A stretch of DNA of 64,000 nt from Nitrosopumilus sp. (lineage in GTDB: Archaea; Thermoproteota; Nitrososphaeria; Nitrososphaerales; Nitrosopumilaceae). The stretch covers positions 1,984,001 through 2,048,000 of the forward strand of contig CBDBLO010000002.1 of NCBI GenBank assembly GCA_965207075.1, written 5' to 3'. Of the stretch, positions 12,903 to 47,514 are shown piece by piece. The translations under genes and the position numbers were made by a program. The notes beneath the pieces are model-generated. The model saw only the letters and a program-made list of their open reading frames with translations, ran no database searches and was not told where the DNA came from. The first letter of the stretch is position 1, and each line of letters begins with the position of its first letter.

Positions 12903-15900
12903 CTACCTGCAGACCTTCGGGGCGGCGAGCGTGGGTGGCACGTCCCGGACGATCACAGTTACGGTGTCGGCATCGGTGGCGCCGTCGTCGTCAGTGACGG
13001 TGAGTGCGAACGTGTAACCGGTGTCGGCCGATACCGAGGGCGCCGTGAAGGTGGGAACCGCAGTGTTGTCGTTCTGGAGGGTTACGCCCTGCGGGGCGGC
13101 CCAGGTGTACGATACAATGGAGCCGTCGGGGTCCGAAGATCCGGATCCGTCAAGCGTCACAGCGTCGTCCTCGTCGACTGTCTGGTCGGGCCCCGCGTCC
13201 GCGGAGGGCGGTGAGTTGGGTGGTGGGGGTGTTGGCGCGGGCATGCGCACCGGCGTGTCCTGAACGGTCACGGTGGCGGTGGCGGTGGCGGATAGCCGGC
13301 CGTCAGACACTGTAAGTGTAAAGTTGTATTGGGTGTCCGCAGAGACTTGGGGAGCCTCAAACGACGGGGTCGCGGTGGCGGCATTTTGTAGGGTTATACC
13401 GGAGGGCGCCGTCCAAGCGTACGTTATGGCATCATTATCAGGATCCGAGGAGTTGGAACCGTCGAGACGCACAGTGTAACCCTCATCCACGGACTGGTCG
13501 GCCCCTGCCTCGGCGGCGGGGGCCCTGTTGACGTGCCGAACCGTTATGGTTACGGTGTCGGTATCGTGCAGCGTGCCGTCAGTGACGTTGAGCGTTATGG
13601 TGTAGGGGGTGTCAGACGCGACATCGGGGGCCGTGAAGGACGGGGTGGCCGAACTGGAGGTCTGCAGGGCAGGTATGGCAGGCGACGACGTCCAAGAGTA
13701 CGTCAGCCCGTCGTTGTCGGGATCCGAGGAGCCGGTGCCGTTGAGGTTCACGGTGGCGCGCTCGTCCACCGCCTGGTCGGCGCCGGCGTTTGCGGCGGGG
13801 GCCCTGTTGACCTCCCTGACGGTGACGGTGACGGTGTCCGTGTCCCACAACTGGCCGTCAGTGACGTTGAGCGTTATGGTGTAGGGGGTGTCAGACGCGA
13901 CATCGGGGGCCGTGAAGGACGGGGTGGCGGTGGTGGCGCCGCTGAGCGCTATGGCCGCAGGAGCCGTCCAGCGGTACGTGAGGGCGTCGCCGTCCGGATC
14001 GGAGGAGGACGAGCCGTTGAGGTTCACGGTGGCGCGCTCCGACGCGGACTGGTCGGCCCCTGCCTCGGCGGCGGGGGCCCTGTTGACGTGCCGAACCGTT
14101 ATGGTTACGGTGTCGGTATCGTGCAGCGTGCCGTCAGTGACGTTGAGCGTTATGGTGTAGGGGGTGTCAGACGCGACATCGGGGGCCGTGAAGGACGGGG
14201 TGGCCGAACTGGAGGTCTGCAGGGCAGGTATGGCAGGCGACGACGTCCAAGAGTACGTCAGCCCGTCGTTGTCGGGATCCGAGGAGCCGGTGCCGTTGAG
14301 GTTCACGGTGGTGCGCTCGTCCACCGCCTGGTCGGCGCCGGCGTTTGCGGCGGGGGCCCTGTTGACCTCCCTGACGGTGACGGTGACGGTGTCCGTGTCC
14401 CACAACTGGCCGTCAGTGACGTTGAGCGTTATGGTGTAGGGGGTGTCAGACGCGACATCGGGGGCCGTGAAGGACGGCGTGGCGGTGGTGGCGCCGCTGA
14501 GCGCTATGGCCGCAGGAGCCGTCCAGCGGTACGTGAGGGCGTCGCCGTCCGGATCGGAGGAGGACGAGCCGTTGAGGTTCACGGTGGCGCGCTCCGACGC
14601 GGACTGGTCGGCCCCTGCCTCGGCGGCGGGGGCCCTGTTGACGTGCCGAACCGTTATGGTTACGGTGTCGGTATCGTGCAGCGTGCCGTCAGTGACGTTG
14701 AGCGTTATGGTGTAGGGGGTGTCAGACGCGACATCGGGGGCCGTGAAGGACGGGGTGGCCGAACTGGAGGTCTGCAGGGCAGGTATGGCAGGCGACGACG
14801 TCCAAGAGTACGTCAGCCCGTCGTTGTCGGGATCCGAGGAGCCGGTGCCGTTGAGGTTCACGGTGGCGCGCTCGTCCACCGCCTGGTCGGCGCCGGCGTT
14901 TGCGGCGGGGGCCCTGTTGACCTCCCTGACGGTGACGGTGACGGTGTCCGTGTCCCACAACTGGCCGTCAGTGACGTTGAGCGTTATGGTGTAGGGGGTG
15001 TCAGACGCGACATCGGGGGCCGTGAAGGACGGCGTGGCGGTGGTGGCGCCGCTGAGCGCTATGGCCGCAGGAGCCGTCCAGCGGTACGTGAGGGCGTCGC
15101 CGTCCGGATCGGAGGAGGACGAGCCGTTGAGGTTCACGGTGGCGCGCTCCGACGCGGACTGGTCGGCCCCTGCCTCGGCGGCGGGGGCCCTGTTGACGTG
15201 CCGAACCGTTATGGTTACGGTGTCGGTATCGTGCAGCGTGCCGTCAGTGACGTTGAGCGTTATGGTGTAGGGGGTGTCAGACGCGACATCGGGGGCCGTG
15301 AAGGACGGGGTGGCCGAACTGGAGGTCTGCAGGGCAGGTATGGCAGGCGACGACGTCCAAGAGTACGTCAGCCCGTCGTTGTCGGGATCCGAGGAGCCGG
15401 TGCCGTTGAGGTTCACGGTGGTGCGCTCGTCCACCGCCTGGTCGGCGCCGGCGTTTGCGGCGGGGGCCCTGTTGACCTCCCTGACGGTGACGGTGACGGT
15501 GTCCGTGTCCCACAACTGGCCGTCAGTGACGTTGAGCGTTATGGTGTAGGGGGTGTCAGACGCGACATCGGGGGCCGTGAAGGACGGCGTGGCGGTGGTG
15601 GCGCCGCTGAGCGCTATGGCCGCAGGAGCCGTCCAGCGGTACGTGAGGGCGTCGCCGTCCGGATCGGAGGAGGACGAGCCGTTGAGGTTCACGGTGGCGC
15701 GCTCCGACGCGGACTGGTCGGCCCCTGCCTCGGCGGCGGGGGCCCTGTTGACGTGCCGAACCGTTATGGTTACGGTGTCGGTATCGTGCAGCGTGCCGTC
15801 AGTGACGTTGAGCGTTATGGTGTAGGGGGTGTCAGACGCGACATCGGGGGCCGTGAAGGACGGGGTGGCCGAACTGGAGGTCTGCAGGGCAGGTATGGCA

Positions 15901-18900
15901 GGCGACGACGTCCAAGAGTACGTCAGCCCGTCGTTGTCGGGATCCGAGGAGCCGGTGCCGTTGAGGTTCACGGTGGCGCGCTCGTCCACCGCCTGGTCGG
16001 CGCCGGCGTTTGCGGCGGGGGCCCTGTTGACCTCCCTGACGGTGACGGTGACGGTGTCCGTGTCCCACAACTGGCCGTCAGTGACGTTGAGCGTTATGGT
16101 GTAGGGGGTGTCAGACGCGACATCGGGGGCCGTGAAGGACGGCGTGGCGGTGGTGGCGCCGCTGAGCGCTATGGCCGCAGGAGCCGTCCAGCGGTACGTG
16201 AGGGCGTCGCCGTCCGGATCGGAGGAGGACGAGCCGTTGAGGTTCACGGTGGCGCGCTCCGACGCGGACTGGTCGGCCCCTGCCTCGGCGGCGGGGGCCC
16301 TGTTGACGTGCCGAACCGTTATGGTTACGGTGTCGGTATCGTGCAGCGTGCCGTCAGTGACGTTGAGCGTTATGGTGTAGGGGGTGTCAGACGCGACATC
16401 GGGGGCCGTGAAGGACGGGGTGGCCGAACTGGAGGTCTGCAGGGCAGGTATGGCAGGCGACGACGTCCAAGAGTACGTCAGCCCGTCGTTGTCGGGATCC
16501 GAGGAGCCGGTGCCGTTGAGGTTCACGGTGGTGCGCTCGTCCACCGCCTGGTCGGCGCCGGCGTTTGCGGCGGGGGCCCTGTTGACCTCCCTGACGGTGA
16601 CGGTGACGGTGTCCGTGTCCCACAACTGGCCGTCAGTGACGTTGAGCGTTATGGTGTAGGGGGTGTCAGACGCGACATCGGGGGCCGTGAAGGACGGCGT
16701 GGCGGTGGTGGCGCCGCTGAGCGCTATGGCCGCAGGAGCCGTCCAGCGGTACGTGAGGGCGTCGCCGTCCGGATCGGAGGAGGACGAGCCGTTGAGGTTC
16801 ACGGTGGCGCGCTCCGACGCGGACTGGTCACGGTGGCGCGCTCCGACGCCGTCAGTGACGAGCGTTATGGTGTGGTCGGGGGGCCTGACGGGGTGGCCGA
16901 ACTCGGCAGGTATGGCGGGATCCGAGGAGTACCGTCGTTGTCGGGATCCGAGTGCCGTTGCCGTTGAGGTTCACGGTGGTGCGCTCGTCCACCGCCTGGT
17001 CGGCGCCGGCGTTTGCGGCGGGTGTAGGGGGTGTCAGACGCGACATCGGGGGCCGTGAAGGACGGGGTGGCCGAACGTGTCCCGCTATGGCCGCAGGAGC
17101 CGTCCAACGGTACGTGAGGGCGTCGCCGTCCGGATCGGAGGAGGACGAGCCCGCGTGAAGGACGGCGTGGCGGTGGTGGCGCCGCTGAGCGCTATGGTGT
17201 AGGGGGGTCAGACCGACATCGGGAGCCGTGAAGGACGGTACGTGATCCGAGGAGCCGGTGCCGTTGAGGTTCACGGTGGTGCGCTCGTCCACCGCCTGGT
17301 CGGCGCCGGCGTTTGCGGCGGGGGCCCTGTTGACCTCCCTGACGGTGACGGTGACGGTGTCCGTGTCCCACAACTGGCCGTCAGTGACGTTGAGCGTTAT
17401 GGTGTAGGGGGTGTCGTGCTCAACGTCACTGAGGAGGACCGAGGAGCCGTCCAGCGGTACGTGAGGGCGGTCGCCGTCCGGATCGGAGGAGGACGAGCCG
17501 TTGAGGTTCACGGTGGCGCGCTCCGCACGTGCCGGACTGCGTCGGTAGGGGGCCGGCGTTTGGCCGCAGCGGGGGCCCTGTTGACCAGCCCCCTGGTTCA
17601 CGGTGGGGGGGTGTCAGAGCGCGACTGTCGGGGGCCGTGAAGGACGGGGTGGCCGAACTGGAGGTCTGCAGGAACCAGGTATGGCAGGCCGTCACGACGT
17701 TGAAGAGTACGTCAGCCCGAACCGTTGTCGGGATCCGAGCGTGGAGCCGGTGCCGGTGGACATCGGGGGCCGTGAAGGACGGGGTGGCCGAACTGGAGGT
17801 CTGCAGGGCAGGTATGGCAGGCGACGACGTCCAAGAGTACGTCAGCCCGTCGTTGTCGGGATCCGAGGAGCCGGTGCCGTTGTCGGTTCACGGTGGTGCG
17901 CTCGATCCGAGGAGCCGGTGCCGTTGAGGTTCACGGTGGTGGTGGCGCGCTCGTCCGTCCGGATCCGCCGTTGAGGTTCACGGGTCGTGCGGACTGGTCG
18001 GCCCTGCCTGCGGCGGGGGGCGCTGTTGACGTGCCGAAGTTATGTTATGCCGTCAGTGACGTTGAGGGTGTAGGGGGTGTCAGACGCGACATCGGGGGCC
18101 GTGAAGGACGGCGTGGATCCGAGGTGGTGGCGACCTCCTGAGCGCTGACCGCAGGAGCCGTCAGCGGTTATGGTGTAGGGCGTCGCCGGGGCCGTGATCC
18201 GGAGCGGTACGTGAGGGCGTCGCCGTCCGGATCGGAGGAGGACGAGCCGTTGAGGTTCACGGTGGCGCGCTCCGACGCGGACTGGTCGGCGCCGGCGTTT
18301 GCAGCGGGGGCCCTGTTGACCTCCCTGACGGTGACGGTGACGGTGTCCGTGTCCCACAACTGGCCGTCAGTGACGTTGAGCGTTATGGTGTAGGGGGTGT
18401 CAGACGCGACATCGGGGGCCGTGAAGGACGGGGTGGCCGAACTGGAGGTCTGCAGGGCAGGTATGGCAGGCGACGACGTCCAAGAGTACGTCAGCCCGTC
18501 GTTGTCGGGATCCGAGGAGCCGGTGCCGTTGAGGTTCACGGTGGTGCGCTCGTCCACCGCCTGGTCGGCGCCGGCGTTTGCGGCGGGGGCCCTGTTGACC
18601 TCCCTGACGGTGACGGTGACGGTGTCCGTGTCCCACAACTGGCCGTCAGTGACGTTGAGCGTTATGGTGTAGGGGGTGTCAGACGCGACATCGGGGGCCG
18701 TGAAGGACGGCGTGGCGGTGGTGGCGCCGCTGAGCGCTATGGCCGCAGGAGCCGTCCAGCGGTACGTGAGGGCGTCGCCGTCCGGATCGGAGGAGGACGA
18801 GCCGTTGAGGTTCACGGTGGCGCGCTCCGACGCGGACTGGTCGGCGCCGGCGTTTGCAGCGGGGGCCCTGTTGACCTCCCTGACGGTGACGGTGACGGTG

Positions 18901-21104
18901 TCCGTGTCCCACAACTGGCCGTCAGTGACGTTGAGCGTTATGGTGTAGGGGGTGTCAGACGCGACATCGGGGGCCGTGAAGGACGGGGTGGCCGAACTGG
19001 AGGTCTGCAGGGCAGGTATGGCAGGCGACGACGTCCAAGAGTACGTCAGCCCGTTGTTGTCGGGATCCGAGGAGCCGGTGCCGTTGAGGTTCACGGTGGT
19101 GCGCTCGTCCACCGCCTGGTCGGCGCCGGCGTTTGCGGCGGGGGCCCTGTTGACAGGCAGGTTCGCGCTCAGAGTTACCTGCCGCGTGAGGGTGGTGAGC
19201 GCACCTATGTCGATGATCCTACCGGTAGACTCTATGCACACGCTGTACGAACTCTGGGCAAGGGCGCTGGGGTTCAGCTTCAGGACGTTGTCCGATATGG
19301 AAAAATCCTCATTGTCGTCACATCCGGTGCCGGTTACGAGGGAGTAATTCGGGTTGTGGCCTGTCAGATAATCGTTCTGGGGCGAGATGAGGGCCGCGAA
19401 CGAGCGGTCCGTTCCCACGTCCGTGGTGTTGAGCTGTATGTACCAGAGCCCCAGGTTCGGGTTGAAGGAGGAGGCGTGGGCGAACATATGGTTCATGTCG
19501 GTCACACCCGACACGTCCCACGCGGAGATGTCTTGGTTGAAGGAGAAGGCGTAGGTGAACATGTAGCTCATGTCGGTCACGCCCGACACGTCCCACGCGG
19601 AGATGCTCTGGTTGAAGGCTAAGGCTTCATAGAACATGCGGTTCATGTCGGTCACGCTGGAGGTGCTCCACGCGGAGAGGTCACCATCAAAGTCCCAGGC
19701 GTCTTCGAACATGCTGCTCATGTTGGTCACGCCCGACACGTCCCACGCGGAGATGCTCTGGTTGAAGACAACGGCGCCGGAGAACATATAGTTCATGTCG
19801 GTCACACCCGACACGTCCCACGCGGAGAGGTCGCCGTCAAAGAGGACGGCGTAGGCGAACATGCTGCTCATGTCGGTCACGCCCGACACGTCCCACGCGG
19901 AGATGTTTTGGTTGAAGACATTGGTTTCATAGAACATGCGGTTCATGTCGGTCACGCTGGAGGTGCTCCACGCGGAGAGGTCGCCGTCAAAGAGGGAGGC
20001 GTCTTCGAACATGCTGCTCATGTTGGTCACGCCCGACACGTCCCACGCGGAGATGTCTTGGTTGAAGGAGGAGGCGTAGGCGAACATGTAGCTCATGTCG
20101 GTCACGCCCGACACGTCCCACGCGGAGATGTCTTGGTTGAAGGAGGAGGCGTGGGCGAACATGTAGCTCATGTCGGTCACGCCCGACACGTCCCACGCGG
20201 AGAGGTTGCCGTCAAAGAGGTGGGCGTAGGCGAACATGCTGCTCATGTCGGTCACGCCCGACACGTCCCACGCGGAGAGGTTGCCGTCAAAGAAGGAGGC
20301 GTAGGCGAACATGTAGCTCATGTCGGTCACGCCCGACACGTCCCACGCGGAGATGTCTTGGTTGAAGGAGGAGGCGTGGGCGAACATGTAGCTCATGTCG
20401 GTCACGCCCGACACGTCCCACGCGGAGAGGTTGCCGTCAAAGAAGAAGGCGTCTTCGAACATGCTGCTCATGTCGGTCACGTCGGAGAGGTCGGGCGAGT
20501 CGGGCGCGTAGAGTCTCATGTTGCTCGCGCCCTTGAACGCGGATGCCATGGACGTCCACGACGCGTTGCCCCACTGGTCGATGCTCCGCAGCTGGGCGGC
20601 GTTTGCAGGGTCGCCACCCAAGTATATCCGGGTAAAGTCGCCGGATATGTTGACCGCATAGTCGCCCGGCTCATCGTATGTGTGCGATATGTCACCGGAC
20701 ACGCTGGAGTTGGTGGTGCCGTCGCCCCAGTCCACAGTGTAGGAGCCAGTGGCGCCATCCACAGGTATCGTTATGGCCTTGTCGGTTTCAGTGGCCGCCC
20801 ACGTGGTGACAAAGTCCGTAGAGTCGGCCCACGCGTACTGGAACATGCCGTGGCCGCGGGCTCCCTGATCCGCGTCCCATTCCCACCAATCTCCGGCGCT
20901 CCACGCGTTCTTCCCACCACCATCATGACAACAGCAGCAGATTAGCAAGCATGCCGCGCACAACCCCAAGTTCGCACACGTGGCGCGACGTGCGGACTTC
21001 GTTCCGTTTGCGTCAGGCGGAACTGTGTGACAGCAGGAACCATGGGCGTGGCATCTATCCGAAGGGTTCACATGCTGTTGCAGTTGCGCGCCCCAATTTA
21101 ACAT
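12903..21104 (-). CDS. Giant surface protein: DUF285/BspA-like 25-aa repeats plus a long PKD/Ig-like repeat stalk; reading frame broken in 16830-18200; start uncertain
   Basis: ORFs 18168-21104 and 12903-16802 share the [30 protein letters not shown]-type repeats; FVTTW..VDWGDG N-domain; [13 protein letters not shown] repeats. Confidence 0.85.
13492..16828. repeat. Near-perfect 555-bp tandem repeat, six copies (two PKD domains each), with a 1110-bp higher-order unit
   Basis: Identical blocks every 555 bp (13609, 14164, 14719, 15274, 15829, 16384); ERATV/ERTTV SNP alternates. Confidence 0.95.
19442..20491 (-). repeat. Fourteen 75-bp DUF285/BspA-type repeats
   Basis: (DVSG/STSS)VT(D/N)MxxMFxxAxxF(DG/NQ)x(L/I)SAW x14. 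Confidence 0.92.
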
Positions 21105-21164
21105 AACCGGCCAAGATGGGAAAAAACCGAGGCCATGCGTGAGTGTCCATAGGGGAGCTCGGCA

Positions 21165-21335: not shown

Positions 21336-21339
21336 ACAT

Positions 21340-21880: not shown

Positions 21881-21929
21881 CGCGTATGGTATGCACGCCT
21901 TGAATGCAGGTATTCTACCCTACATGTAG

Positions 21930-22152: not shown

Positions 22153-22689
22153 CTAATCGTGTGCGTGCGGGTTGACCGAGCTGCCCTGCATCTTGACAAA
22201 GGTCCCGTCTGCCTTCTCGTGGTACTCGAGGTATGACGGCTCTATCAGGATGGCGTGCGTCGGACATGCCTCCTGGCATGCCATGCACTGGGTGCAGTCG
22301 TGCTCCCTGATCGGCTGTGACTTGTCGGAGTAGTCCAGGCGCTCGTCCTGCTCTGTCAGGCCCGTGCCCTCAAAGGTGGCGTCCAGGCAGTCGGCCGCAG
22401 CAATGTCCTGCTCGGTCCGGTACCACTGGAATGTCTGCACGGGACAGACGCTCATGCACGAGCCAGCGGCGACGCACGAGTCCCAGTCGACTGCCACGGT
22501 GGTGCCGTGGATGCCGAGCGGGACCTGCTCCTCGCCGTGCTCCTCGTATGCGGCCTTGACATCGTCGTTGGAGAATGCATCGCCCTCGGTATTACCAGGC
22601 CCCCAGATGAAGTGCTTGTTCTCACCATCTGCGTGGCTGGTCTTGCCGATGACTTCAAGATTCTCTACAAATTTCTCGTCTATTGGCAT
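22153..22689 (-). CDS. Dicluster (7Fe-type, zinc-ferredoxin-like) ferredoxin
   Basis: DWDSCVAAGSCMSVCP and CTQCMACQEACP. Confidence 0.9.
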   Translation of the reverse strand: MPIDEKFVENLEVIGKTSHADGENKHFIWGPGNTEGDAFSNDDVKAAYEEHGEEQVPLGIHGTTVAVDWDSCVAAGSCMSVCPVQTFQWYRTEQDIAAADCLDATFEGTGLTEQDERLDYSDKSQPIREHDCTQCMACQEACPTHAILIEPSYLEYHEKADGTFVKMQGSSVNPHAHD

Positions 22690-22751: not shown

Positions 22752-23303
22752 TCAGTCGTGCGAGTGCGGGTTCGGCGTGCCGGCCTCTATCTTTACAAAG
22801 GTCCCGGCCGCCTTTTCGTGCGCCTCCAGGTTCGACTGGTCCACCTTTATGGCCTGGGGCGGGCATACGGATACGCACGCCATGCACCATATGCAGTCGT
22901 GCTCCCTGATGGGGTCGGCCTTGTCGGTAAAGTCGGCCCTCTCGTCCTTGACGGAGCTGCCCGTGCCCTCAAAGTACTGCCCCGGCACGTCCTTGGCGGG
23001 TATGTCCTTTTCCGTGCGGTACCATTGGAAGACCTGGACGGGGCACGCCTCTATGCAGGCGCCGTCTGCCACGCACGAGTCCCAGTCGACTGCCACCATC
23101 GTCCCGCTGACGCCTAGCGGAACCTGCTCCTCGCCGCGCGCCGCGTACGCGGACTTTACGTCCTCGTCGGAGAGTACCTCCGCCGGCGATCCGTCCGCGT
23201 TCTTGTCCTTGCCTGGGCCCCACACAAAGTGGAACTGGCCGTCGGCCGTCTCGATCTTGCCTATGGGCTCCAAGCCCTCGGGAAAGTTTTCTGCTATCGG
23301 CAT
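22752..23303 (-). CDS. Dicluster ferredoxin paralogue
   Basis: [16 protein letters not shown] and [12 protein letters not shown]. Confidence 0.9.
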
Positions 23304-31831: not shown

Positions 31832-32050
31832 AAGAGTAACGGGAGAGGGCGGCAGCTTTTTACAAATTCAGCGGCTTTGGTTTTTCCAAGAGCGTTTGTC
31901 ACGTGTGGGGGTACCCTTCACCATACTGACAGACTGACGTAGAGGGACCAAGCAAGCAGTTACGACAATAGCGGTGAACGAGGGCCGCACAAGGTGCTAA
32001 CGTTAATAATTGATTAAAAAGTGGCAGGAATGGTCAGTTTTGCTGACCGT

Positions 32051-32124
32051 GGGCCGGTCGTCTAGTCCGGTAGGATAGGTGCATGGCATGCATCGGATCG
32101 AGGGTTCAAATCCCTTCCGGTCCA
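32051..32124 (+). tRNA. tRNA-Ala (GGC)
   Basis: GGGCCGG/CCGGTCC stem with G3:U70; GGTGC-AT GGC AT-GCATC anticodon arm. Confidence 0.92.
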
Positions 32125-32281
32125 TTTTCTATTCATATACCGAGGAAGCAGTTTCTGGGTTATGCCACGTGCAGCGGGCGCCGGGATCCCCGTGCGGGCA
32201 GAATGCAAATGGATTAGCCCGTTACAACGGGGCATTGCGGTCCGGGATGGCAAGCCTCACGCGCGCGCGAGGTTATGCAGC

Positions 32282-32962
32282 ATGGCTAACATGACCACAT
32301 TGCAGCCCGGCACCGGCGGCCAAAAATTTGGCCTTAAATCAAAACTGGTGATCTTGGAGGAGCGGTTGAGGGGATCTTCAAAAAAGCTGTTGGAAGCGGA
32401 CGAGAACGTCGCAAGGTGGCACACGAACCTTGCGCGCTCAAGCCAGCTCACCGCCAACTCCCGGATAAGGCGGCTCAGCTTGTTCTACAAGAACACCGGG
32501 ATAACCCCCGCCGAGATGGTCGCGACTGGAAGGGAGAGCAGCATGAAGGCCGAGGACATGATACTTGATTACGTGACGTGGATGGAGTCGCAAAAGTACG
32601 CGCCGGGATACATAGAGGACGTCGTCAAGGCGCTCAAGTCGTGGCTGACGTACAACTATGTCGACATACGGCGCAAGATAAAGATGGCAAACGCCAGGAT
32701 CCCCGTAACGCTGGAGGACGAGCAGGTGCCCACCCCGGCGCAGCTCGAGTCTATCATGAACACAGCTGATCCGCGCACCCGCGCCTGCATGTCCCTGATG
32801 GCCTTTGCCGGGCTGCAGCCGCAGGTGATAGACAACCATGACGGGACCAACGGGCTGCGCGCCTCGGATGTCAAGGGGCTGCGCGCGGACGGCGATGGAG
32901 GGGGCGCGGTCTCTTACCAGCTCAATTGGCGCGATGGCCCCCTTCCGGCTGTCGGCTCCTGA
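32282..32962 (+). pseudogene. Truncated tyrosine integrase
   Basis: YAPGYIEDVVKALKSWL, EQVPTPAQLESI, RTRACMSLMAFAGLQPQV (catalytic R apparently replaced by Q); C-terminal catalytic half missing; directly 3' of the tRNA. Confidence 0.8.
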
Positions 32963-33312
32963 ATGTCCCAGTGTCCTCCTCGCTCTACGATGGTCGGAGT
33001 GTTCATTCCCTGTTTGGCACGAGGTTCAGTCTTGGAGCGCTGCGCGTTCGCGTTCCCGGCCGGTGTTCGCCATGGGCGCGCCGGCTCAATGCCGCCCGCC
33101 GTGTCATGCGTATACGTCACCGCCCTCGTCGGTTACCTCCGAGGACGGTCAATCGCCTCCCTCTCCGGCCAACAGGCAGCCAAACTCAATCACCACTCCC
33201 GCTGGAAACTTACAATCCCAGACATTTCATGAGGCGCGCAGTTACCGTTCAACGTTCTCGCGCACCAACCGCATGTGTCGGTATCAACGTGTTCCCCATC
33301 GGTAACTCGCAC
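32915..33312 (-). mobile_element. Probable group II intron 5' fragment (domain I only)
   Basis: Begins GTGCG; contains TTGTAAGTTTCCAGCGGGAGTGGTGATT and AAGACTGAACCTC, which I recall as IIB domain I-like; no RT ORF or domain V seen. Confidence 0.5.
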
Positions 33313-33494
33313 TCCATTCTTGGCGCAGGTCGCCCGGGGCATCCGTGACCCTACTACCGTCAGCCGGTCCAGAACACGAGGCGTCTCGGGCATGTCCAGC
33401 GGCCTGCCCCGGGCTCCGTCCAGAACCGAGCACCTACGCATCCTGTCGGCTCGGTCGGCTCCGCCGATCCCAAGGGGGCTCCGGACACAGGTTC

Positions 33495-33562
33495 GGCAGG
33501 CGTCAGGCACGGAAGTCGACAATGTTGTCGACTTTGTCGACTTTGGCAGGCGTCAGGCACGG
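33495..33562. repeat. 18-bp direct repeats enclosing a perfect inverted repeat
   Basis: GGCAGGCGTCAGGCACGG at 33495 and 33545; AAGTCGACAA-TG-TTGTCGACTT between them. Confidence 0.85.
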
Positions 33563-33755
33563 TTCGCAGACTTGAATCTACACAAGGCCGGCTTTTCTAC
33601 GATTGGGTATCACTCTGACTGCATCCTCAATCGCAGATACTTGCCAAGCAGTGGCATGACAAGTTCCACGCCGGACTTGCATATCGTGTCCCGCTAATGT
33701 ATGCGATTCCAGCGGGACGGCTTGCCGTCCATGTGACGGCCGGCAGTCCTTGGTT

Positions 33756-34847
33756 TTAGCACTGGCATTTGTCCTTGACGCTTTTGAGATCCTCAAGGTA
33801 CATGCCTTCCTTCTTGTATTCGTTGATTACGGACACGTCCTTGCTCAACCTCATCCCAATGTGGTTTGCAATCACGGCAAACCTCTGCTGAAACTTGTAG
33901 ATAAAGCAGAAGATCGTGTTGTGCTGCTGTAGCAACGGCCCCGTCACATAGAGGCCCGGGGTCTTTGTGGACTCGTCATAGGAATTCAACAGTGCCTTTT
34001 CCTCTTCCCAGTGGAACATCTCCTTGATCAGCGAGAGGCCTCCCGTAAAACCGGTGGCAAGGATCGGCCTTGTCTTTGACCGGATCTTTGTTTTCCCCGT
34101 CGAAATTACAAACTCGTCGTGCTTTTTTGCCACCTGGGTCACGCGCCCGATGAATATTTTTACCGTCTCGGCAGAGTTGACCCTTCTCAGCCTGTCCTTT
34201 GTGTACGGGGATATTATCCTACTGGGATCTATTTCATCACTGTCAAGCAGGTTCTTCGTGTCGATTATCGTGACCCGCTTGTCGCGCTCTGCAAGATTAA
34301 TCGCAGTATCCATGCCGCTTTCATAACCGCCTATGACAAAAAAATCGTCACCCTTAACCTCGTCCCAGTTGGTAATCAGGCTGTTGTGTATGCAGTACTC
34401 TGCACCCGGAAACGAGTTGTCCCTCGGGTATTGGAACTCCCCCGCCGCCCAGATTAGAAACATGGTCTCTATCTTCCCCTTGTCGGTGTCCAGGACAAAT
34501 CCACCCTCTGTCTTTAGCACCGAATTTACATTGATGCCGGTCCGGATTGGCAGCTTGAAGTGCTTTGAGAGGTTCTGTAGGTACGTCGCATACTCCTGCC
34601 CGCTGGGATGCTCCGTCTGCAGCGTCAGTGCAGGCGAGGTGTCGTATGTTATTGCGTTGAGATCTATCATCTTGAAGGTGTTGCTAAAGAACGAGGGAGT
34701 CAGCAGCTTCATCTGCTTTGGCCATTTGAGAAAGGAACTGCCGACGGCATTGCGTTCCAGGACTGTAAAGTTGATCCCCAACTTTTTCAGTATTATTGAC
34801 ACGCCTATTCCCGACGGTCCTGCACCCACCACGACTGTTTCAAACAC
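33756..34847 (-). CDS. NAD(P)/FAD-dependent oxidoreductase (pyridine nucleotide-disulfide-like); start probably GTG 34847
   Basis: VVVGAGPSG, IWAAGEFQYP, VIGGYESGMD, ILATGF, FCFIYKF, C-terminal CQC. Confidence 0.88.
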   Translation of the reverse strand: MFETVVVGAGPSGIGVSIILKKLGINFTVLERNAVGSSFLKWPKQMKLLTPSFFSNTFKMIDLNAITYDTSPALTLQTEHPSGQEYATYLQNLSKHFKLPIRTGINVNSVLKTEGGFVLDTDKGKIETMFLIWAAGEFQYPRDNSFPGAEYCIHNSLITNWDEVKGDDFFVIGGYESGMDTAINLAERDKRVTIIDTKNLLDSDEIDPSRIISPYTKDRLRRVNSAETVKIFIGRVTQVAKKHDEFVISTGKTKIRSKTRPILATGFTGGLSLIKEMFHWEEEKALLNSYDESTKTPGLYVTGPLLQQHNTIFCFIYKFQQRFAVIANHIGMRLSKDVSVINEYKKEGMYLEDLKSVKDKCQC

Positions 34848-35205
34848 TAGTTGCGGTCTGGGCAATAATGTTATTAATGTTTGGATTTTTTTTATCAAAA
34901 AATATTAATATTATTCAAAATCTTAATAAACAGAGGCGCCACGGGGGTATTGGGAGCATGAAGGTTGTAACATCGAGGCTGGAAGGAATGCAGGCATTAC
35001 CGAACCGGAGGCTGTCCGGTCCGGGGGCGGGCGCGGGGTGCTGGGAGACGGGGGCCCTGCGGCAGGCCTGGCAGCATCTCGGATGCCAGAAAGGGCCGAG
35101 GCCTGCAGGACGAGATGACTGCGGGGTGCCTGAGGCGAGAGCCAAGACGCATGTCCCAAGGACTGACTTGTTGCAGATCTGAAATGACCGCGCAGAGCTC
35201 TACAA

Positions 35206-35792
35206 TGGGAAAGTCGGCCCACATCCACACGATGCGCGTCCCCAAGCGCCTTCAGAAGGAGTGGAAAAAACTGTTTACAAAGCAGCTGTACTGCATGGGA
35301 CAAGACATACGGCACGGAGACAACCTGCTGCTGCGGTACGGCTTTACAAGACAGAGGCCCCCGAACCCGGACATGGGAAGCAGCCAGTATTCGCTCATTA
35401 CACAGAACGGGCAGGTACTTTTGTGGGGTTTTGGAATGATGTTTTCTGCAAAAAACGACGGATTGTTCTTGTGGCGCCACGAGTTTGAACCGAAATTCGT
35501 CAGGGTCAGCTCGCTCCTGCCCAACACGTGGAGCTGTGACCAGCTTCCGCGACGCACAATGCCAAAAACCGCGGAGGAGGCGCTGCGGATGCTGCAGATG
35601 CTCGTTGAATCCATGAGGTGGCTGGAAAGCTATGAAAACTGGGTGCATGCCACGTGCGGACAGTCATACCGCAGCAAGTCACTGCAGAGAGAGTATGCAT
35701 CCGATCCGGTCCAGCGCATGGACGAGGCGTGGCGCAAACTGTCTGAGGAGTTTGCAAAAATCCTAAAAACCCAGGCTGGGGCCACGCCATGA
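35206..35792 (+). CDS. Hypothetical protein
   Basis: Open frame 35115-35792 with globular composition (QLYCMGQDIRHGDNLLLRYGF, VLLWGFG); start chosen at ATG 35206. Confidence 0.65.
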
Positions 35793-35822
35793 CATGGCTG
35801 GACCGGCCGTGGACCGTTTTGG

Positions 35823-37460
35823 TCAAATCTGAAGAAAGGCATTCCAAAGTTTGTCAGAATGCGCCAGCAGCAGCGTAAACGCGACGGCTGCAATGATCTG
35901 TTTTGCCGCCATCCTGACTGCAAACTTCCACGACATCTCGCGCACTATGGTCAGGAAAGTCACGATGCACGGCAGCAGCGTCCCGGCCAGGTAGACGCCC
36001 GTCAGTACCTGCAGCGCCGAAAGCGAGTCCGCCATGCCGGGTTCGGCAAGAAGCAGCAGCCCGTCCTTCCGGATGGAGCCGAACATTACTGCAAGCGCCG
36101 AGTCCCCCGGCAGGTTGAACAGGCTCATTATGAGGCCAAGCTCCCCTGCAAGAAGGGCTATGACGCCCGTCCAGTTCAGGAGGGATGCGACAAACGTGAT
36201 CGCAAAAAAGACCGGGAGTGCCGTCCTGAAGAACTGCGTTATGCTCTGCCTTGACTCCCTCCAGGTGGAGCTGAACGTGGGCCTCTCAAAGAACACCTGG
36301 CCGTCAATCACCGGCATGCCAAGCTTGGAGCGGTTCTTCCTTGTACTGACCAGCCGGGAGTAGACAACGGTGGTTCCGGCCAGGTAGATCAGGAACGGAA
36401 CCACCAGCCACGGCATGCCGGACGCGGCCAAGACCGCGATGGTCGCACCAAACTGATACGAACACGCAGAGCCGAAGCTTATTGCCGAGACGGTCGTGCC
36501 CCTAGAGCAGCCTGAACAGGACCTGCTGCTGATTACAGCAGGCACGTTGCAGCCAAAACCCATCACTATTCTGGTCACGTCCCTTCCACTCACCCCGATC
36601 CTTCTTACCAGCGGATGAATCGCCAGTGACGTGCGGTCCAGCAGCCCTGTCGACTTGTAGACACCGAGCAGCAGCGAGTATATGGTAATTGTCGGCGCCG
36701 CCCAGACAAAGAGGAACGGGCCCATGGAAAAGAGCCCGTATTCCCCGGCAAGGATGTACGTCAGCAAAGGCGGCAACGGCAGTGCCTCCAGGCGCTCCAC
36801 CGGCCCTGCCATGAGATCTGCCACTATGGGGTGGACGAGGCCTGCAAAGTAATTGGCCCCTGCAACTGACAGTATAGAAGGGGCCAGCAGCGACGCCATC
36901 CCGATTACGATCCCCATGTGCCTCTTTTCAAGGACCGTCGACTTGGGCCTGAGTGAGATTCCGGTGTGGAACGTCTTGTTTGAAAAGGTGCGGGGATTCT
37001 CTAGCGTCTTGCCGATCCTGCTCTTTTGAAACTCTGTGATCCTCCGCGCGTCGAGGGCAATTACGGGCATCCCCAGATCCCGCTCCAGCTGCTCAATTAT
37101 GGCAGCATTCTTTGAATTCGCCACCCTGTCCCAATTCGTCACTATTATCGCCCCCTTTTTGGCCTTGACCAATGAAAAGAGGTACTCGAGATCCTCATCC
37201 ATGCTTGTGGCACGGACGACAAGCAGTATGGAATCGTCCTCCTGCATTGACGCGATTGCAGTCCTTGTCGTTTCACTGTCAGAGTCAAAAACTATTCCCG
37301 GCGTGTCTACAAAGTCGAACCTGTTGCCGCTGTAGGATTCACTTGAGATCGTAGAGCCCCTGATGTTGCTGCCCCCCGCATCCTTTCCTGTAAGCGACGA
37401 GATTAGCTGTGATTTTCCAACTCCCTCCTTTCCAATTACTATGAATCTGGGAACGTTCAT
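35823..37460 (-). CDS. FeoB-like GTPase plus Gate-domain metal transporter
   Basis: GKEGVGKS, DTPG, TNWD, multiple TM helices, MGFGCNVPA, LLPC. Confidence 0.85.
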   Translation of the reverse strand: MNVPRFIVIGKEGVGKSQLISSLTGKDAGGSNIRGSTISSESYSGNRFDFVDTPGIVFDSDSETTRTAIASMQEDDSILLVVRATSMDEDLEYLFSLVKAKKGAIIVTNWDRVANSKNAAIIEQLERDLGMPVIALDARRITEFQKSRIGKTLENPRTFSNKTFHTGISLRPKSTVLEKRHMGIVIGMASLLAPSILSVAGANYFAGLVHPIVADLMAGPVERLEALPLPPLLTYILAGEYGLFSMGPFLFVWAAPTITIYSLLLGVYKSTGLLDRTSLAIHPLVRRIGVSGRDVTRIVMGFGCNVPAVISSRSCSGCSRGTTVSAISFGSACSYQFGATIAVLAASGMPWLVVPFLIYLAGTTVVYSRLVSTRKNRSKLGMPVIDGQVFFERPTFSSTWRESRQSITQFFRTALPVFFAITFVASLLNWTGVIALLAGELGLIMSLFNLPGDSALAVMFGSIRKDGLLLLAEPGMADSLSALQVLTGVYLAGTLLPCIVTFLTIVREMSWKFAVRMAAKQIIAAVAFTLLLAHSDKLWNAFLQI

Positions 37461-37489
37461 TGCAGATCATAAAAAGGTGGGAGCGCGGA

Positions 37490-37741
37490 CTAGCCGCATG
37501 GTGCGTTCTTAATCTGAGGGGTCCCGCTCATGGCGTGATGCCAGTCAATCCTCTGCCCCCTGTCCCCAAAGGTCGCGTCATCCATTTTGGAAAGCCAGGC
37601 CTGGAAAGGGATGCGGCTCCCAGACACGCTAACACCGTACACCCTTCCCATGCCGGCGTAGACATTTGGAACTTTATGCATCCGGTCCTGCGCCCTGCCG
37701 ATCTCTTCAACTTCAAGATTTACTTGGAATGTCTTGGTCAT
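37490..37741 (-). CDS. Small hypothetical protein upstream of the FeoB-like gene
   Basis: ATG about 30 nt downstream of an AT-rich TATA-like tract; ends 30 nt before the FeoB-like start. Confidence 0.4.
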   Translation of the reverse strand: MTKTFQVNLEVEEIGRAQDRMHKVPNVYAGMGRVYGVSVSGSRIPFQAWLSKMDDATFGDRGQRIDWHHAMSGTPQIKNAPCG

Positions 37742-38015
37742 GCCACTGGTATCGGCCCGGCACTATTTATATATTATTAAATATTTCAGAATCTTTCATA
37801 GTTATTATTAAAAATCATTAGATTATTAATATCATGGAGCACAGGGGCGGGCGGTTCATGGCAATGCTAGGGTGATGCAGGCACAGGATGGGAGTGCCCC
37901 CCGCATTGCCGTGCTGGACACATTCCGGTCCACCATCTACAGGGCGCGGACCGCGTTGCGTTTGACAGTGTCAGGCCAGCCTCCGACACGGTTCTAGTGC
38001 AGGCGGGGTGCCGGG

Positions 38016-38505: not shown

Positions 38506-39885
38506 TTGAATAAAGTTGCAATATATGCCATCGTCGGGGCCGTGATTGCAATAGGGATTGCAGCTGCGGCCGTTTCGTACCCAGCCGACGAGCCCGCAGA
38601 CATGGACGCCGACATGCAGCCGGAGGATGCCGCCACGACGGTGCCAGAAAATGCAGGGGCGCCCGGCGATGTCAACGAGACGGCAGACGAGGACACGGAT
38701 GACGGGAGAGACAGCGGGGCCGATGGCGACAGCAGCGCGGCGTCATCAGACACAAGGACGGTAGACGTCGGGGCGCTGATCCCGGTAACCGGGGACCTGG
38801 CAAGCTACGGGATCGACACGAGATACGGGCTGGACATGGCATTGGACCACTTCAACGCATACCTGCAGGACAAGGGGGCGGACTGGCGCATGAGGCTCGT
38901 CGCGGAAGACACGCAGACCAACCCGATCACCGCCCTTGAAAAGATACAGTCGCTTGACGCCAAGGGGATAAAGTACATACTGGGGCCGTCGTCGAGCGCG
39001 GAGATCCGCAACATCATGGCGTACGTGAACTCCAACAACATGCTGCTGATATCGCCCTCGTCCACGTCGCCCAAGCTGGCAATCCCGGGCGACAACATAT
39101 TCAGGTTTGTCCCCGACGACAGCAAGCAGGGCACCGTGATAGCGGCGCTGCTAGAAGACCGCGGCATCAAGGCCATAGTAGCCGTATACCGCGGCGACAT
39201 ATGGGGCGACGGGCTGTTTGAGACGGCGGCGGCCGCGTTTGAGGACAGGGGCGGCGTCGTGGCAGAGGGCATACGCTACAACCCGGAGATAACCACGTTC
39301 TCCTCGGAGATGCACGCGCTCTCGAGTCTGGTGGCCCAGCTGCACGACACGTACGAGCGCGGCGAGGTAGGCGTCCTCCTCATAAGTTTCGACGAGGCGT
39401 CGCACATGTTCAACTCCGCGGTCGAGTACGAGAACCTGCGAAGCATACAGTGGATCGGCTCCGAGGGGGTCACGGGGGCGCACACCATCACGGACGACGA
39501 GCGCGCGGCCAAGTTTGCGGAGGATACCAGGCTAATGGCGCTGCAGTTCTCTGCGTCGGACAACGAGGTGTTCAGGGACGTCAGGGATGAGTTTGAGAGG
39601 CGGTCGGGCGCCACCCCCAACAACAACTACATCTACGCGTCGTATGACAGCCTGTGGGCGCTGGGCCTCGCGATGGAGGCGGCGGGGCCTGACGTGCAGG
39701 ACATCATAGAGCAGCTCCCAGATACCGTCACCGGGCGCACCGGTGCGCTGGGTGACGTCACGTTCAACGAGGCGGGGGACCTGGACGTCACGGACTATGA
39801 GTTTCTGATAGTTGCAGACGGCGAGTGGGCGCCCGCGGCCAGGTATGACGCGGCCACGGGTGAGATTGTGGACTATCACCAATAG
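38506..39885 (+). CDS. Liv-type ABC substrate-binding protein (orphan paralogue)
   Basis: N-terminal TM anchor, acidic linker, VGALIPVTGDLAS, SPSSTSPKL, FRFVPDD; clearly homologous to 49063-52740. Confidence 0.9.
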   Translation: MNKVAIYAIVGAVIAIGIAAAAVSYPADEPADMDADMQPEDAATTVPENAGAPGDVNETADEDTDDGRDSGADGDSSAASSDTRTVDVGALIPVTGDLASYGIDTRYGLDMALDHFNAYLQDKGADWRMRLVAEDTQTNPITALEKIQSLDAKGIKYILGPSSSAEIRNIMAYVNSNNMLLISPSSTSPKLAIPGDNIFRFVPDDSKQGTVIAALLEDRGIKAIVAVYRGDIWGDGLFETAAAAFEDRGGVVAEGIRYNPEITTFSSEMHALSSLVAQLHDTYERGEVGVLLISFDEASHMFNSAVEYENLRSIQWIGSEGVTGAHTITDDERAAKFAEDTRLMALQFSASDNEVFRDVRDEFERRSGATPNNNYIYASYDSLWALGLAMEAAGPDVQDIIEQLPDTVTGRTGALGDVTFNEAGDLDVTDYEFLIVADGEWAPAARYDAATGEIVDYHQ

Positions 39886-40638
39886 GCGGCACCGGCAGCC
39901 GCGCGGCACGCGCGGGGGTGTGATGATGGAAGGAGGCACAGGTGCAGGCACGCAACCGCCGTACGTCATACGTGCCGTGCGTAGCGCTAGTTTAGAAATT
40001 CCATCCCGTACGTCGGGCTCAGAGTCGATGATGTCATAGTTCAGCAGGAGCTCGTACGGCTACGTCCAGCAGCGGAGGCGTGCCAAACTCCATGGGAACT
40101 GCCGTCACGCCGCTGCCATAGTCATTACTCGGTTGGCCAGCATGCTCCTTGTCATGAACTCCGACTCGTCTCCGGCGCACCGGACGTCTTTCCCAGTCCC
40201 GCGGCTCGCGATTCCGGGCTCCCTTAGCGCCATCGGCGCAAGCGGGCCCTGCCTGCATGTGACTACCAGGGCGCGCGTCGGCGCCCGTAACCCTAGTCCG
40301 CGGCGCCTGCAACCGCGTCCCCAACGGACGTGCCCTCAAAGTCGAACGACCCTATGATGACTGCCACGCCGTTGTCCAGATGGCATCCCTTCCGGTCGGC
40401 CGTGTAAACGCCCGCAAGCTGCGCCTGACCCGCCCGCCTGAGCTTTGCCGCCGTCACCATCTCGGCAGGGTCACCGTCGGCCGTAGACAGGGACGGGACT
40501 GGATCCCGCCACAGCAACGACAATCACGATTGCGAGTATGGCCTTGCTCTGCCCGCGAGGCGAACAAGCGGAGAGGCTTGTTAATTGCCAGTAACAGACA
40601 GGCACGTCCTGCAAATAAGAAACCCCGGCACGCCGTGA

Positions 40639-42087
40639 TCAGCGGCACACGTTGGGAGGAGCCAGCGCCACCCAGTCGTAGACGCCGTCGGCGACCTCGA
40701 CCACGTGGTATACGACGTACGCCCTGGTTTCAGTCAGGTCACCCGTCGCCGGATCCAGCATGTAGTCGCCCATCGCCCCCTCGCCCAGGATTCTGTTTTC
40801 GTGGGGCACCGGGTCCATGTTGTTGTTGGCCACGTCAAATATGACGGCCTTTAGGTCTGCACCATCACCATCAACGCCGCCGATTGCAAGGACGTCGGCC
40901 AAGAGGTGGACTGCATCGTACGAGGCAAAGTTGAAGTTTCTAAAGCCGGGGCTGAACGTCGGCAGTTCTGCGAGCGGGGCGTTGACGTCGGTGCTCGCAA
41001 TCTCGAATACAACGACGTTCATGTCTACACGATCGGCAAATGCGGCGGCAGTTGGGTCGCCCGTAATGAAGGGAGAGTGTCCGAGATAATTGTAGCCAAA
41101 CCACTTTACGTCGTCTAGGACGGTCAGCTGCGGGTTGGCCGCAATGGCGTGGGCCATGGTAACGAAGGTGGGCGGCTGCGTGGCCGCGAATACCCCTATC
41201 CGATCACTGCCGTGCTGGTCAATCAGCGCGGTTAGATCGTCGTTCAGTTGGATCAGCGACTCGGTGTTAGCCGCCAAGTCGTTGAAACCATATATTGGAA
41301 TTGCGTCAGGCTGGTAGTGGTCGTGCAGGTCGTCTGGGAAGAAGCCCTGCTCTACGAGCGGCTCGAACGCCGCATCGGTGACTATAATCACGCTCCCGAC
41401 GCCCTGCCTGTCAAACTGCTCTAAGAGACGCTCGCCCTGCGTCGCAACGTTGGGCGCCAGCCTGAAGAGATTGTCGTCCGCGGCCAGGGAGGGTGGCAGG
41501 GTGGACTGAGATGCTGGCGATATGAGTATTGTATCTGACAGAGTTGGTATATTGTTTACGACCTGTTGGACTACAAAAAGGGCCTGATCGTCGGACGGGG
41601 CGATAAAGTGCTTGTAGCCGTCCTGGGCGGCGGCGCCAATCTGCTGTCCCACAAATAGCCCATGGGCCGGATCCGAAAAATTCCCCCTGATGTCAATAAA
41701 CTTTAGCTCCAGCTCTGCGTTGAAGTGAGCTGAGGATTCCTCATTCCAGGCATCCCGGGCCGCCTCCATTGCCAGGTTGGGGCCTTCCTCAAAGATGGGC
41801 AGGGATGCCGAGAGCACGCCGATCTTTATCTTCTCAGTGGTCTGCGCCATCGCCGCCTCCGACATGCCGACGGCGGCCAAGGCTGCCACGGCTACCACCG
41901 CTGCGATCAGCAGCTTGCCTGTGGCATGCGGGGCAGAGGCGGCCTTTGGGCCGCGCGCCAGTCTTGCCTGCGGTGTGTCTGAAAGATCGTACATGTATAC
42001 TGCTGTATCATCATTTAACTGGTTAATAACATTTGTGAACGAGCAGGCGCCGCCCAGATCACGCGCCGCAAAGTATGAACGCAGCAC
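40639..42087 (-). CDS. Divergent periplasmic-binding-protein type I (Liv-like) exported protein; true start probably near 41997
   Basis: Signal-like LLIAAVVAVAALAAVG..AMA, KIKIGVL, LISPAS, DNLFRLAPN, YDAVHLLA. Confidence 0.8.
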   Translation of the reverse strand: MLRSYFAARDLGGACSFTNVINQLNDDTAVYMYDLSDTPQARLARGPKAASAPHATGKLLIAAVVAVAALAAVGMSEAAMAQTTEKIKIGVLSASLPIFEEGPNLAMEAARDAWNEESSAHFNAELELKFIDIRGNFSDPAHGLFVGQQIGAAAQDGYKHFIAPSDDQALFVVQQVVNNIPTLSDTILISPASQSTLPPSLAADDNLFRLAPNVATQGERLLEQFDRQGVGSVIIVTDAAFEPLVEQGFFPDDLHDHYQPDAIPIYGFNDLAANTESLIQLNDDLTALIDQHGSDRIGVFAATQPPTFVTMAHAIAANPQLTVLDDVKWFGYNYLGHSPFITGDPTAAAFADRVDMNVVVFEIASTDVNAPLAELPTFSPGFRNFNFASYDAVHLLADVLAIGGVDGDGADLKAVIFDVANNNMDPVPHENRILGEGAMGDYMLDPATGDLTETRAYVVYHVVEVADGVYDWVALAPPNVCR

Positions 42088-47507: not shown

Positions 47508-47514
47508 CGGCTCA

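Follow-up and report, generated by a model that had tools for sequence, protein, structure and literature searches.

The stretch of DNA analysed here, referred to as the window, comprises 64,000 nt of a Nitrosopumilus sp. genome (assembly GCA_965207075.1, contig CBDBLO010000002.1, forward-strand positions 1,984,001 to 2,048,000) and contains two open reading frames (ORFs) whose products end in nearly the same eight residues, closing with Cys-Arg directly at the stop codon. Guanine-cytosine (GC) content across the window is 58-69%, and the gene content is archaeal, with MCM, GINS, RFC, eIF6, and eIF2-type genes accompanied by an ATP-binding cassette (ABC) operon of the Liv type. The first of the two ORFs, on the minus strand at 12903-16802 (12903-16970 from stop to stop), encodes the C-terminal part of an adhesin composed of PKD-type repeats and terminates at a TAG codon. 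The second, on the minus strand at 40639-42087 with a probable ATG at 41994, encodes a protein of 451 amino acids that resembles periplasmic binding proteins. The C-terminal letters of this second ORF read DGVYDWVALAPPNVCR, or YDWVALAPPNVCR in an alternative extract, and are followed by the stop codon TGA; residues 425-451 of P0002 constitute the C-terminal tryptic peptide AYVVYHVVEVADGVYDWVALAPPNVCR. The positions of the main features are collected in Table 1.

Table 1. Features of the adhesin locus, the binding-protein-like gene, and the canonical Liv-type comparators in the window.
Feature	Position	Strand	Evidence and remarks
Adhesin tail LAAPKVCR with TAG stop	12903..12929	-	Read from the ORF; A[AV]PKVCR end also present in P0182 and P0238
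C-terminal open frame of the adhesin with 14 PKD-type repeats	12903..16970	-	Pfam, tandem-array scan, alignment to P0238/P0182; lacks its own start and signal peptide
PKD-repeat coding with at least four frame changes	16852..18366	-	tblastn of the repeat unit, ORF map
Adhesin N-terminal part, with DUF285 repeats and then PKD repeats	18168..21104	-	Pfam, DUF285 E 8.5e-179
Canonical Liv-type binding protein (comparator)	38506..39885	+	Pfam; N-terminal transmembrane segment and acidic stalk, no Cys, no tail
Binding-protein-like tail LAPPNVCR with TGA stop	40639..40665	-	Read from the ORF; C450/R451 invariant in 22 of 22 aligned sequences
Orphan protein of the type I periplasmic-binding-protein / Venus-flytrap fold, 451 aa from ATG, single Cys at residue 450	40639..41994	-	AF2, Foldseek, Cys count
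Predicted signal peptide; β-strand 1 immediately preceded by an invariant A-x-A↓Q(T) site of cleavage type	41845..41994	-	Alignment, AF2, hydrophobicity
Fusion of three binding-protein domains at the head of the Liv ABC operon (comparator)	49063..52740	-	N-terminal transmembrane segment and Pro/Glu stalk, no Cys, no tail

The initial annotation of the window regarded the common C-terminus as a candidate sorting or anchoring signal, and the shared Cys-Arg tail on these two ORFs is confirmed as a real observation. Six of the last eight residues are alike, as had been claimed, and in both proteins the match lies directly at the stop. The match exists at the level of protein, since the codons differ (GTC TGC AGG TAG in the adhesin, GTG TGC CGC TGA in the binding-protein-like gene) and the DNA 3' of the two stops is unrelated. 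When all 717 stop-to-stop ORFs of at least 50 amino acids in the six frames of the window were considered, these two alone ended in P-x-[VI]-C-R. A pairwise comparison of the 53 gene-like ORFs (1378 pairs) found six identical residues among the terminal eight for this single pair, the next-best pair being true paralogues that share five of eight, and a six-of-eight pair arose in 0.25% of 2000 random tail sets generated with the composition of the window. A terminal C[RK] was present in none of the 118 other gene-like ORFs of the window and six related loci. The annotation was also correct that neither tailed protein possesses a C-terminal transmembrane helix; the maximum 19-residue Kyte-Doolittle (KD) mean over the last 60 residues is 0.87 and 1.11 for the two proteins, which indicates that there is no C-terminal hydrophobic segment.

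The protein encoded at 40639-42087 had been labelled Liv-like, a description that holds for its fold and not for its family membership or genomic setting. The model obtained with AlphaFold2 (AF2) from a 22-row alignment displays the two-lobed α/β architecture of the type I periplasmic-binding or Venus-flytrap fold, with a mean predicted local distance difference test score (pLDDT) of 80.5 and a predicted template modelling score of 0.79. Foldseek comparison of this model with the PDB retrieved the plant receptor GLR3.4, mGluR, LivK/LivJ, and NPR-C at E about 1e-13. The protein also shares a C-terminal G-D-L...W hairpin with the canonical Liv-type paralogues of the window. Unlike Liv-type proteins, it scores 15.9 bits for ANF_receptor, which is under the Pfam cut-off of 25.4, has no ABC permease genes alongside, bears a cleavable-type signal in place of a transmembrane segment and stalk, and carries the Cys-Arg tail; it is a divergent orphan outside the ABC operon. 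The Liv-type operon itself (45500-52740, minus strand) has its own binding protein, a fusion of 1225 amino acids with three binding-protein domains and one transmembrane anchor, which heads the ABC genes proper at 45500-49066. Both canonical proteins have an N-terminal transmembrane segment followed by an acidic/Pro stalk of 50-60 amino acids and, as the initial annotation had noted, lack the motif. An apparent third family with a Cys-Arg end (...TPGPCR, at loci L001 and L002) was rejected as a spurious antisense ORF lying over Liv permease genes; its product is of low complexity and rich in R, H, and Q, and it maps to 46332-47552 of the window.

Archaea that lack a cell wall or outer membrane are known to keep exported proteins at the cell by means of N- or C-terminal transmembrane segments, lipoboxes, or archaeosortase signals. 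The first 80 residues of the 451-amino-acid protein reach a KD maximum of 2.24, and within this region A48, A50, and Q51 are invariant and T52 is nearly invariant throughout the 22-row alignment, in which identity descends to 25%. The A-x-A-Q site lies 2-3 residues ahead of the first β-strand of the model (residues 54-62), a position at which cleavage of a signal peptide, between the second Ala and the Gln, would be expected. The invariance of the A-x-A-Q(T) site further suggests that the mature N-terminal Gln is important, possibly as pyroglutamate. Because the canonical paralogues are provided with a transmembrane segment and stalk while the tailed protein has a cleavable-type signal, the latter appears to need another anchor. 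At the other end of the chain, pLDDT drops to 44 across the last ~10 residues, which places the tail outside the confidently modelled fold and is read as a sign of what may be a flexible, exposed C-terminal extension.

Conservation of the tail within the binding-protein-like family was evaluated from two collections of relatives. A word-indexed search with the 451-amino-acid protein yielded 20 homologues, the window's own included, 18 of which terminate in Cys-Arg; the exceptions (P0014 and P0019) derive from contigs of 2-3 kb on which the chain stops ahead of the tail. A scan of GTDB species genomes gave 15 loci, 11 of them from four Nitrosopumilaceae/Thaumarchaeota metagenome-assembled genomes (MAGs) of 57-61% GC. 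The gene ends in [VIM]-C-R-stop at 10 of these 11 thaumarchaeal loci and is cut by a contig end at the eleventh (L003), while the remaining four loci encode remote binding proteins of other phyla and contain no ORF ending in C[RK]. When the distinct C-termini of the family are pooled, 25 of 27 end in [VIMT]-C-R-stop and the other two are truncated fragments. All 25 tails have a single Cys at position -2 followed by Arg, and a majority also have Pro at -5 (19 tails), Val or Ile at -3 (22), and Ala at -7 (17). The tail occurs in all three thaumarchaeal subfamilies, namely the orthologues and two groups whose identity is about 35% and about 25%, respectively, and C450 and R451 are among the invariant columns of the 22-row alignment. 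In the orthologue alignment the penultimate Cys is the sole conserved Cys, and it is the one Cys of the 451-amino-acid protein in all; the most distant subfamily has two further Cys that form a local pair, so that its terminal Cys, which is kept, is again the odd one. The initial annotation had held that the idea should be given up if orthologues did not conserve the tail, an outcome contradicted by these 25 C-termini and by the two close adhesin relatives described below, both of which keep it. Every further tailed protein that came to light belongs to one of these two families. Among the paralogues, those at loci L005 and L010 have no Pfam match at 1e-4 and lie next to housekeeping genes. 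On the complete MAG chromosome that carries L010, a 2469-amino-acid Ig-like surface protein (1986-9395 of that locus, plus strand) is encoded directly upstream of the most distant tailed paralogue; it ends in TTDITVS, without a tail.

A terminal motif of this kind might be created artificially if the stops were mis-called or recoded and a hidden downstream transmembrane segment completed a conventional sorting signal. This explanation, which came into consideration because the stops in the window are TAG and TGA, has no evidence in its favour and can be given almost no weight, since TGA, TAG, and TAA are all used after Cys-Arg within the family, and the in-frame sequence past the stops contains nothing conserved or hydrophobic and meets further stops within 5-18 codons at several loci. 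Read-through into a concealed transmembrane segment was rejected on the same grounds.

The adhesin was originally described as one giant gene, but it is not intact in the window. PKD-repeat coding spans about 18.7 to 16.7 kb across changing frames, with the frame changes falling within 16.85-18.4 kb, and the segment at 16852-18366 is either a pseudogene or a mis-assembled repeat region. The tailed ORF itself, of 1299 amino acids, has neither a start nor a signal peptide of its own, and inspection of the N-terminus of the DUF285 part disclosed no clean signal peptide. Near-identical tandem arrays of a 279-bp PKD unit occupy 13482-16703 (11.6 copies) and 18207-19154 (3.4 copies), and a 75-bp array of 13.6 copies lies at 19460-20481, inside the DUF285 part.

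Relatives of the adhesin were sought in a full-library search with its last 230 residues, from which 150 PKD-rich proteins were listed, and 240 non-self PKD proteins were retrieved overall. Only two of the 240 end in [VIMT]CR, P0182 (3747 amino acids) and P0238 (944 amino acids), the latter being 71% identical and containing DUF285, PKD, and fn3 domains. Both of these close relatives terminate in S-[SI]-[IV]-A-S-I-A-[AV]-P-K-V-C-R. The possibility that the tail is a general trait of PKD adhesins was rejected, as none of the 119 non-self matches of 745-2372 amino acids ends in C[RK] and the two close relatives are the only instances among the 240. In these relatives a VRDV..PP..PPAAP stretch is followed by fn3, a C-terminal domain of ~200 amino acids, and the IA[AV]P-KVCR end, so that in the adhesin lineage, as judged from the aligned sequences, the tail normally closes the ~200-amino-acid domain. 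The window copy lacks both fn3 and the C-terminal domain. A tblastn search of the window with residues 630-944 of P0238 recovered the last nine residues alone, at 12906-12932, and found no trace of the missing domains elsewhere in the window. The arrangement has the appearance of an in-frame deletion that removed about 300 residues between two A-A-P sites; the junction at 12906-12940, compared with the same part of P0238, resembles a microhomology deletion. Given that the window adhesin has lost its C-terminal domain and is frameshifted, a relic is the probable status of its tail, and the copy as a whole is probably a gene in decay which either happens to keep, or was selected to keep, its last residues.

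The unannotated ~200-amino-acid domain that precedes the tail in the relatives corresponds to residues 748-944 of P0238 and to the C-terminus of P0182, and a similarity search with it identified three NHL-repeat proteins, P0264-P0266, at 30-32% identity. The five aligned domain sequences have three conserved Cys residues and a T-x-H-[FL]-[ST] element located 13 residues before the adhesin end. An H-X-(S/T) feature is thereby present in all five (NHF-SS, NHL-SS, YHL-TK), with the H invariant, X either F or L, and S or T following. The same H-X-(S/T) arrangement serves as the self-cleavage motif of the recently described microbial GAIN-like (MAIN) domains, as it does in GAIN domains, and the available part of that report gives the order of MAIN proteins as signal peptide, adhesion domains, MAIN domain, and surface anchor, naming sortase signals, wall-binding domains, and SLH domains as anchors (Brogan & Rudner, bioRxiv 10.64898/2026.05.12.724683). 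The adhesin relatives parallel this order in having an N-terminal hydrophobic segment, DUF285/PKD/fn3 regions, a mostly-beta domain with H-hydrophobic-S/T, and the tail at the anchor position, whereas they differ in showing no sequence match and in ending with Cys-Arg, which is absent from the anchors named in that part of the report; the window copy has no such domain. In motif and position, then, the relatives' domain resembles a MAIN/GAIN domain and may be regarded as a candidate member. If this assignment holds, the Cys-Arg tail occupies precisely the site at which an anchor is expected and would represent an anchor type beyond those named in the accessible portion of the MAIN study (bioRxiv 10.64898/2026.05.12.724683). 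Searches of the ESM Atlas with the domain and the tail segment were uninformative, returning unnamed clusters and a weak lead to ZU5 (0.87), while the tail segment drew a Peripla_BP_5 cluster.

Several established classes of C-terminal signal offer points of comparison with the Cys-Arg tail. The archaeosortase signals PGF-CTERM and PEFG-CTERM are C-terminal surface anchors of archaea, the PEFG type being found in Nitrosopumilus relatives. These signals consist of a transmembrane helix and a basic tail and have no essential Cys, in contrast to the helix-free tail described here. Cys-containing C-termini that direct membrane attachment without a transmembrane segment include the eukaryotic prenylation motifs, namely the CaaX motif, with Cys at -4, and the paired CC or CXC residues of Rab proteins, all of which operate on cytosolic substrates. 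The tail differs in that its one Cys lies at -2, with Arg after it (25 of 25 tails), on proteins that bear N-terminal signal-type segments and would be exported by Sec. Further points of comparison are the tripartite signals MYXO-CTERM, CGP-CTERM, JDVT-CTERM, and Synerg-CTERM, which combine a Cys-containing motif with a transmembrane segment and an Arg cluster (Haft, 10.1101/2023.06.07.544157). According to the accessible text of that study, these signals occupy the extreme C-terminus of diverse surface proteins and contain an invariant signature Cys with Arg after it, as does the tail, but they also comprise a transmembrane segment with an Arg-rich cluster, and intramembrane proteases of the CPBP/Rce1 type cut them. 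The proteins of the window have neither of these additional parts, for their chains end one residue past the Cys, the KD values given above exclude a hydrophobic segment, and the basic cluster is represented by one terminal Arg only. The lack of these parts sets the tail apart from LPXTG and PEP-CTERM signals in the same way. When NCBIfam models were run against P0002, P0238, the five domain sequences, and the C-terminus of the adhesin, no C-terminal sorting-domain model was listed; the sole related names belonged to whole-protein 'myxosortase/rhombosortase-dependent M36' models, whose matches lay in the PKD repeats and scored far under the cut-offs.

A lipid anchor was the first option named in the initial annotation; here an enzyme would join the penultimate Cys by a thioether link to an isoprenoid or archaeol-type lipid on the outward face of the membrane, producing a C-terminal lipoprotein without a transmembrane precursor. 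We know of no case of extracytoplasmic lipidation of a free C-terminal tail. The conservation of the tail, its lone Cys, and its low pLDDT would agree with lipidation as well as with a thiol tether, and the C-terminus exits the translocon last and hence would lie near the membrane. All four Cys-containing prokaryotic C-terminal sorting signals covered in the available text of the study cited above have an invariant signature Cys, but they hold that Cys at the membrane with a transmembrane segment and Arg-rich cluster, neither of which occurs here (10.1101/2023.06.07.544157). No CPBP/Rce1-, prenyltransferase-, or archaeosortase-like gene was seen in the window or beside the paralogues, regions that together cover about 10% of a genome; specifically, archaeosortase, CPBP/Rce1-type protease, and sortase were all missing from the 39+12 window ORFs and 22 paralogue neighbours surveyed, which represent genes near tailed loci only. 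A lipid anchor is judged unlikely.

A lone free Cys at a flexible end might instead serve self-assembly alone, in which proteins join tail to tail as covalent homo-dimers or oligomers, as in Venus-flytrap receptors or multimeric adhesins, with no part in anchoring. Some Venus-flytrap receptor dimers are disulfide-linked, and the nearest solved folds include the dimeric receptor ectodomains of mGluR, GABA-B, NPR-C, and GLR3.4. Self-assembly leaves unexplained the retention of a protein whose signal is cleaved on a cell that has no outer membrane, as well as the presence of Pro-x-Val and a terminal Arg in two unrelated families, and it is considered rather improbable as the sole function.

Judged by its conservation across diverged relatives, the tail is a real, selected feature, a short, flexible, helix-free extension of the form Pro-x-(Val/Ile)-Cys-Arg-COOH. 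It bears the one unpaired Cys of two protein families, here called unrelated and exported, from high-GC (sponge-type) Nitrosopumilaceae, which are ammonia-oxidising archaea. The mechanism favoured for it is a thiol tether, an intermolecular disulfide from the penultimate Cys to a partner in the envelope, which is a quite possible reading although the chances of its being correct are put somewhat below even. The proteins would be exported by Sec and their signal peptides cleaved, after which the exposed penultimate Cys would form a covalent intermolecular bond. General chemistry predicts that the neighbouring Arg should favour the thiolate, and a lone Cys that is invariant, exposed to aerobic surroundings outside the cell, and next to Arg is presumably there for covalent bonding. 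The simplest such bond would be a disulfide with a partner that is associated with the membrane or the S-layer, and the resulting tether would retain at the cell surface proteins that have no other anchor. A precedent for this chemistry is found in the tailpiece of the IgM and IgA heavy chains, where the penultimate Cys is disulfide-linked to a partner, the J chain (PMC7555362). As described in the available part of that source, the tailpiece is similarly a flexible C-terminal tail with a penultimate Cys that requires neither a transmembrane segment nor cleavage, but it is eukaryotic, unrelated in sequence, and assembled in the endoplasmic reticulum, which makes it a functional analogy only. 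If the thiol tether is true, a helix-free Cys-Arg tail on two unrelated families would add a distinct anchoring principle, that of a covalent thiol link, to the means of surface retention listed above.

A broader proposal holds that Pro-x-(Val/Ile)-Cys-Arg-COOH defines a new class of transmembrane-free archaeal surface-attachment signal, in which a dedicated partner or enzyme couples the Cys covalently to the envelope and thereby anchors both GAIN/MAIN-like shear-release adhesins and orphan Venus-flytrap proteins in sponge symbionts. This proposal is advanced tentatively, as one that is more apt to fail than to hold. The tail occurs in the lineage of the sponge-associated Thaumarchaeota, which, in the sections available of two reviews, are described as possessing Liv transporters, high-copy LivK-type binding proteins, and DUF285/PKD domains, the surface proteins thought to mediate sponge-symbiont contact including Liv-type binding proteins and 'eukaryotic-like' DUF285/PKD proteins (PMC7848895, PMC6697440). 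Neither 'C-terminal' nor 'cysteine' occurs in the accessible text of these papers (PMC7848895, PMC6697440), and literature searches found no description of a Cys-Arg-stop tail. If the new-signal proposal is true, host-contact proteins of the symbionts would hang from a single thiol-linked 'hook'.

A number of findings count against a common attachment signal and have to be set beside the evidence for it. No partner, enzyme, or modification was seen, only two families carry the tail, and the case for a shared function depends on an 8-residue resemblance between them together with conservation within each. The families show no significant full-length relationship by hhalign (E 0.4), and the tail-to-tail comparison, with segments chosen post hoc, gave P 8e-4 and a probability of 24%. 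Away from the close orthologues, the shared core of the binding-protein-like tails is a hydrophobic residue followed by C-R (e.g., AKAKICR, KGVLVCR, RTPQMCR). The tail-bearing genes lie in no ABC operon and have no conserved companion, their neighbours encoding ribosomal protein S6e, eIF2-gamma, ThiF-type enzymes, and cytochrome b, or, in the window, creatininase and PurU. The decay of the window adhesin implies that one of the two tails in the window is probably non-functional. As for the MAIN-like domain, the AF2 model of its 197 residues, calculated from a 5-row alignment, is unusable (mean pLDDT 36), and the domain has no match in Pfam or among PDB sequences at E up to 10; in NCBIfam it drew a lectin model at E 0.12 for one of five members. 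Finally, the corresponding Cys of P0264-P0266 lies inside the chain (A-P-P-P-V-I-H-T-C-S), with a further domain of ~170 amino acids after it. This internal Cys of the NHL proteins could pair in-chain, in which case the Cys of the adhesins may be a leftover of a domain boundary. The ~170-amino-acid domain itself ends in C-R-x-P in two of the three proteins (...YQAMCRMP in P0264 and ...YQATCRLP in P0266), and this might represent Cys-Arg near a terminus in a third context, or equally point to a domain-boundary origin of the adhesin Cys.

These observations bear on the explanation that the two tails have unrelated roles and converged, the Cys-Arg of the binding-protein-like family serving a family-specific function, for instance folding or contact with a ligand or metal, that of the adhesins marking a truncated boundary of a Cys-containing domain, and the likeness arising by chance through Ala/Pro-rich linkers in a 62% GC genome. 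The restriction of the tail to two families, the reduced core outside the close orthologues, the internal Cys of P0264-P0266, and the decay of the window adhesin all fit convergence, and many features were screened initially, so that the per-window chance of 0.25% is not decisive. Convergence leaves it surprising that at positions -8, -7, -5, -3, -2, and -1 the adhesin tails have the residue that prevails in the other family, and that an exact C-terminal position and an odd-numbered Cys are features of both families. Moreover, the binding-protein-like tail lies outside the confidently modelled fold, and an invariant terminal Arg is hard to ascribe to folding alone. Unrelated roles are accordingly thought improbable, although deserving of a share of the weight similar to that accorded a lipid anchor.

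Other features of the window are recorded here as separate observations. The interval 32000-38000 has a GC content of 0.53-0.58, compared with about 0.62, and may be acquired DNA; it includes a flavin monooxygenase-like Pyr_redox_3 gene (33756-34898) and FeoB (35823-37460). ORFs of mobile or defence type comprise an IS66-family transposase (890-2509, minus strand), an rve integrase (58522-59736, minus strand), and a Schlafen-group-3-like helicase (29762-31831, plus strand). Two tandem paralogous 4Fe-4S ferredoxin-domain proteins (22153-22689 and 22752-23303, minus strand) have the common end NPH[AS]HD. Zinc-ribbon C-termini (FC..CG) are found in the adjoining ORFs at 59788-60267 (plus strand), 60327-60902 (minus strand), and 61412-62359 (plus strand), beside which lie a gene for thioredoxin (60950-61366) and an ORF resembling S26 signal peptidases (62400-63503).

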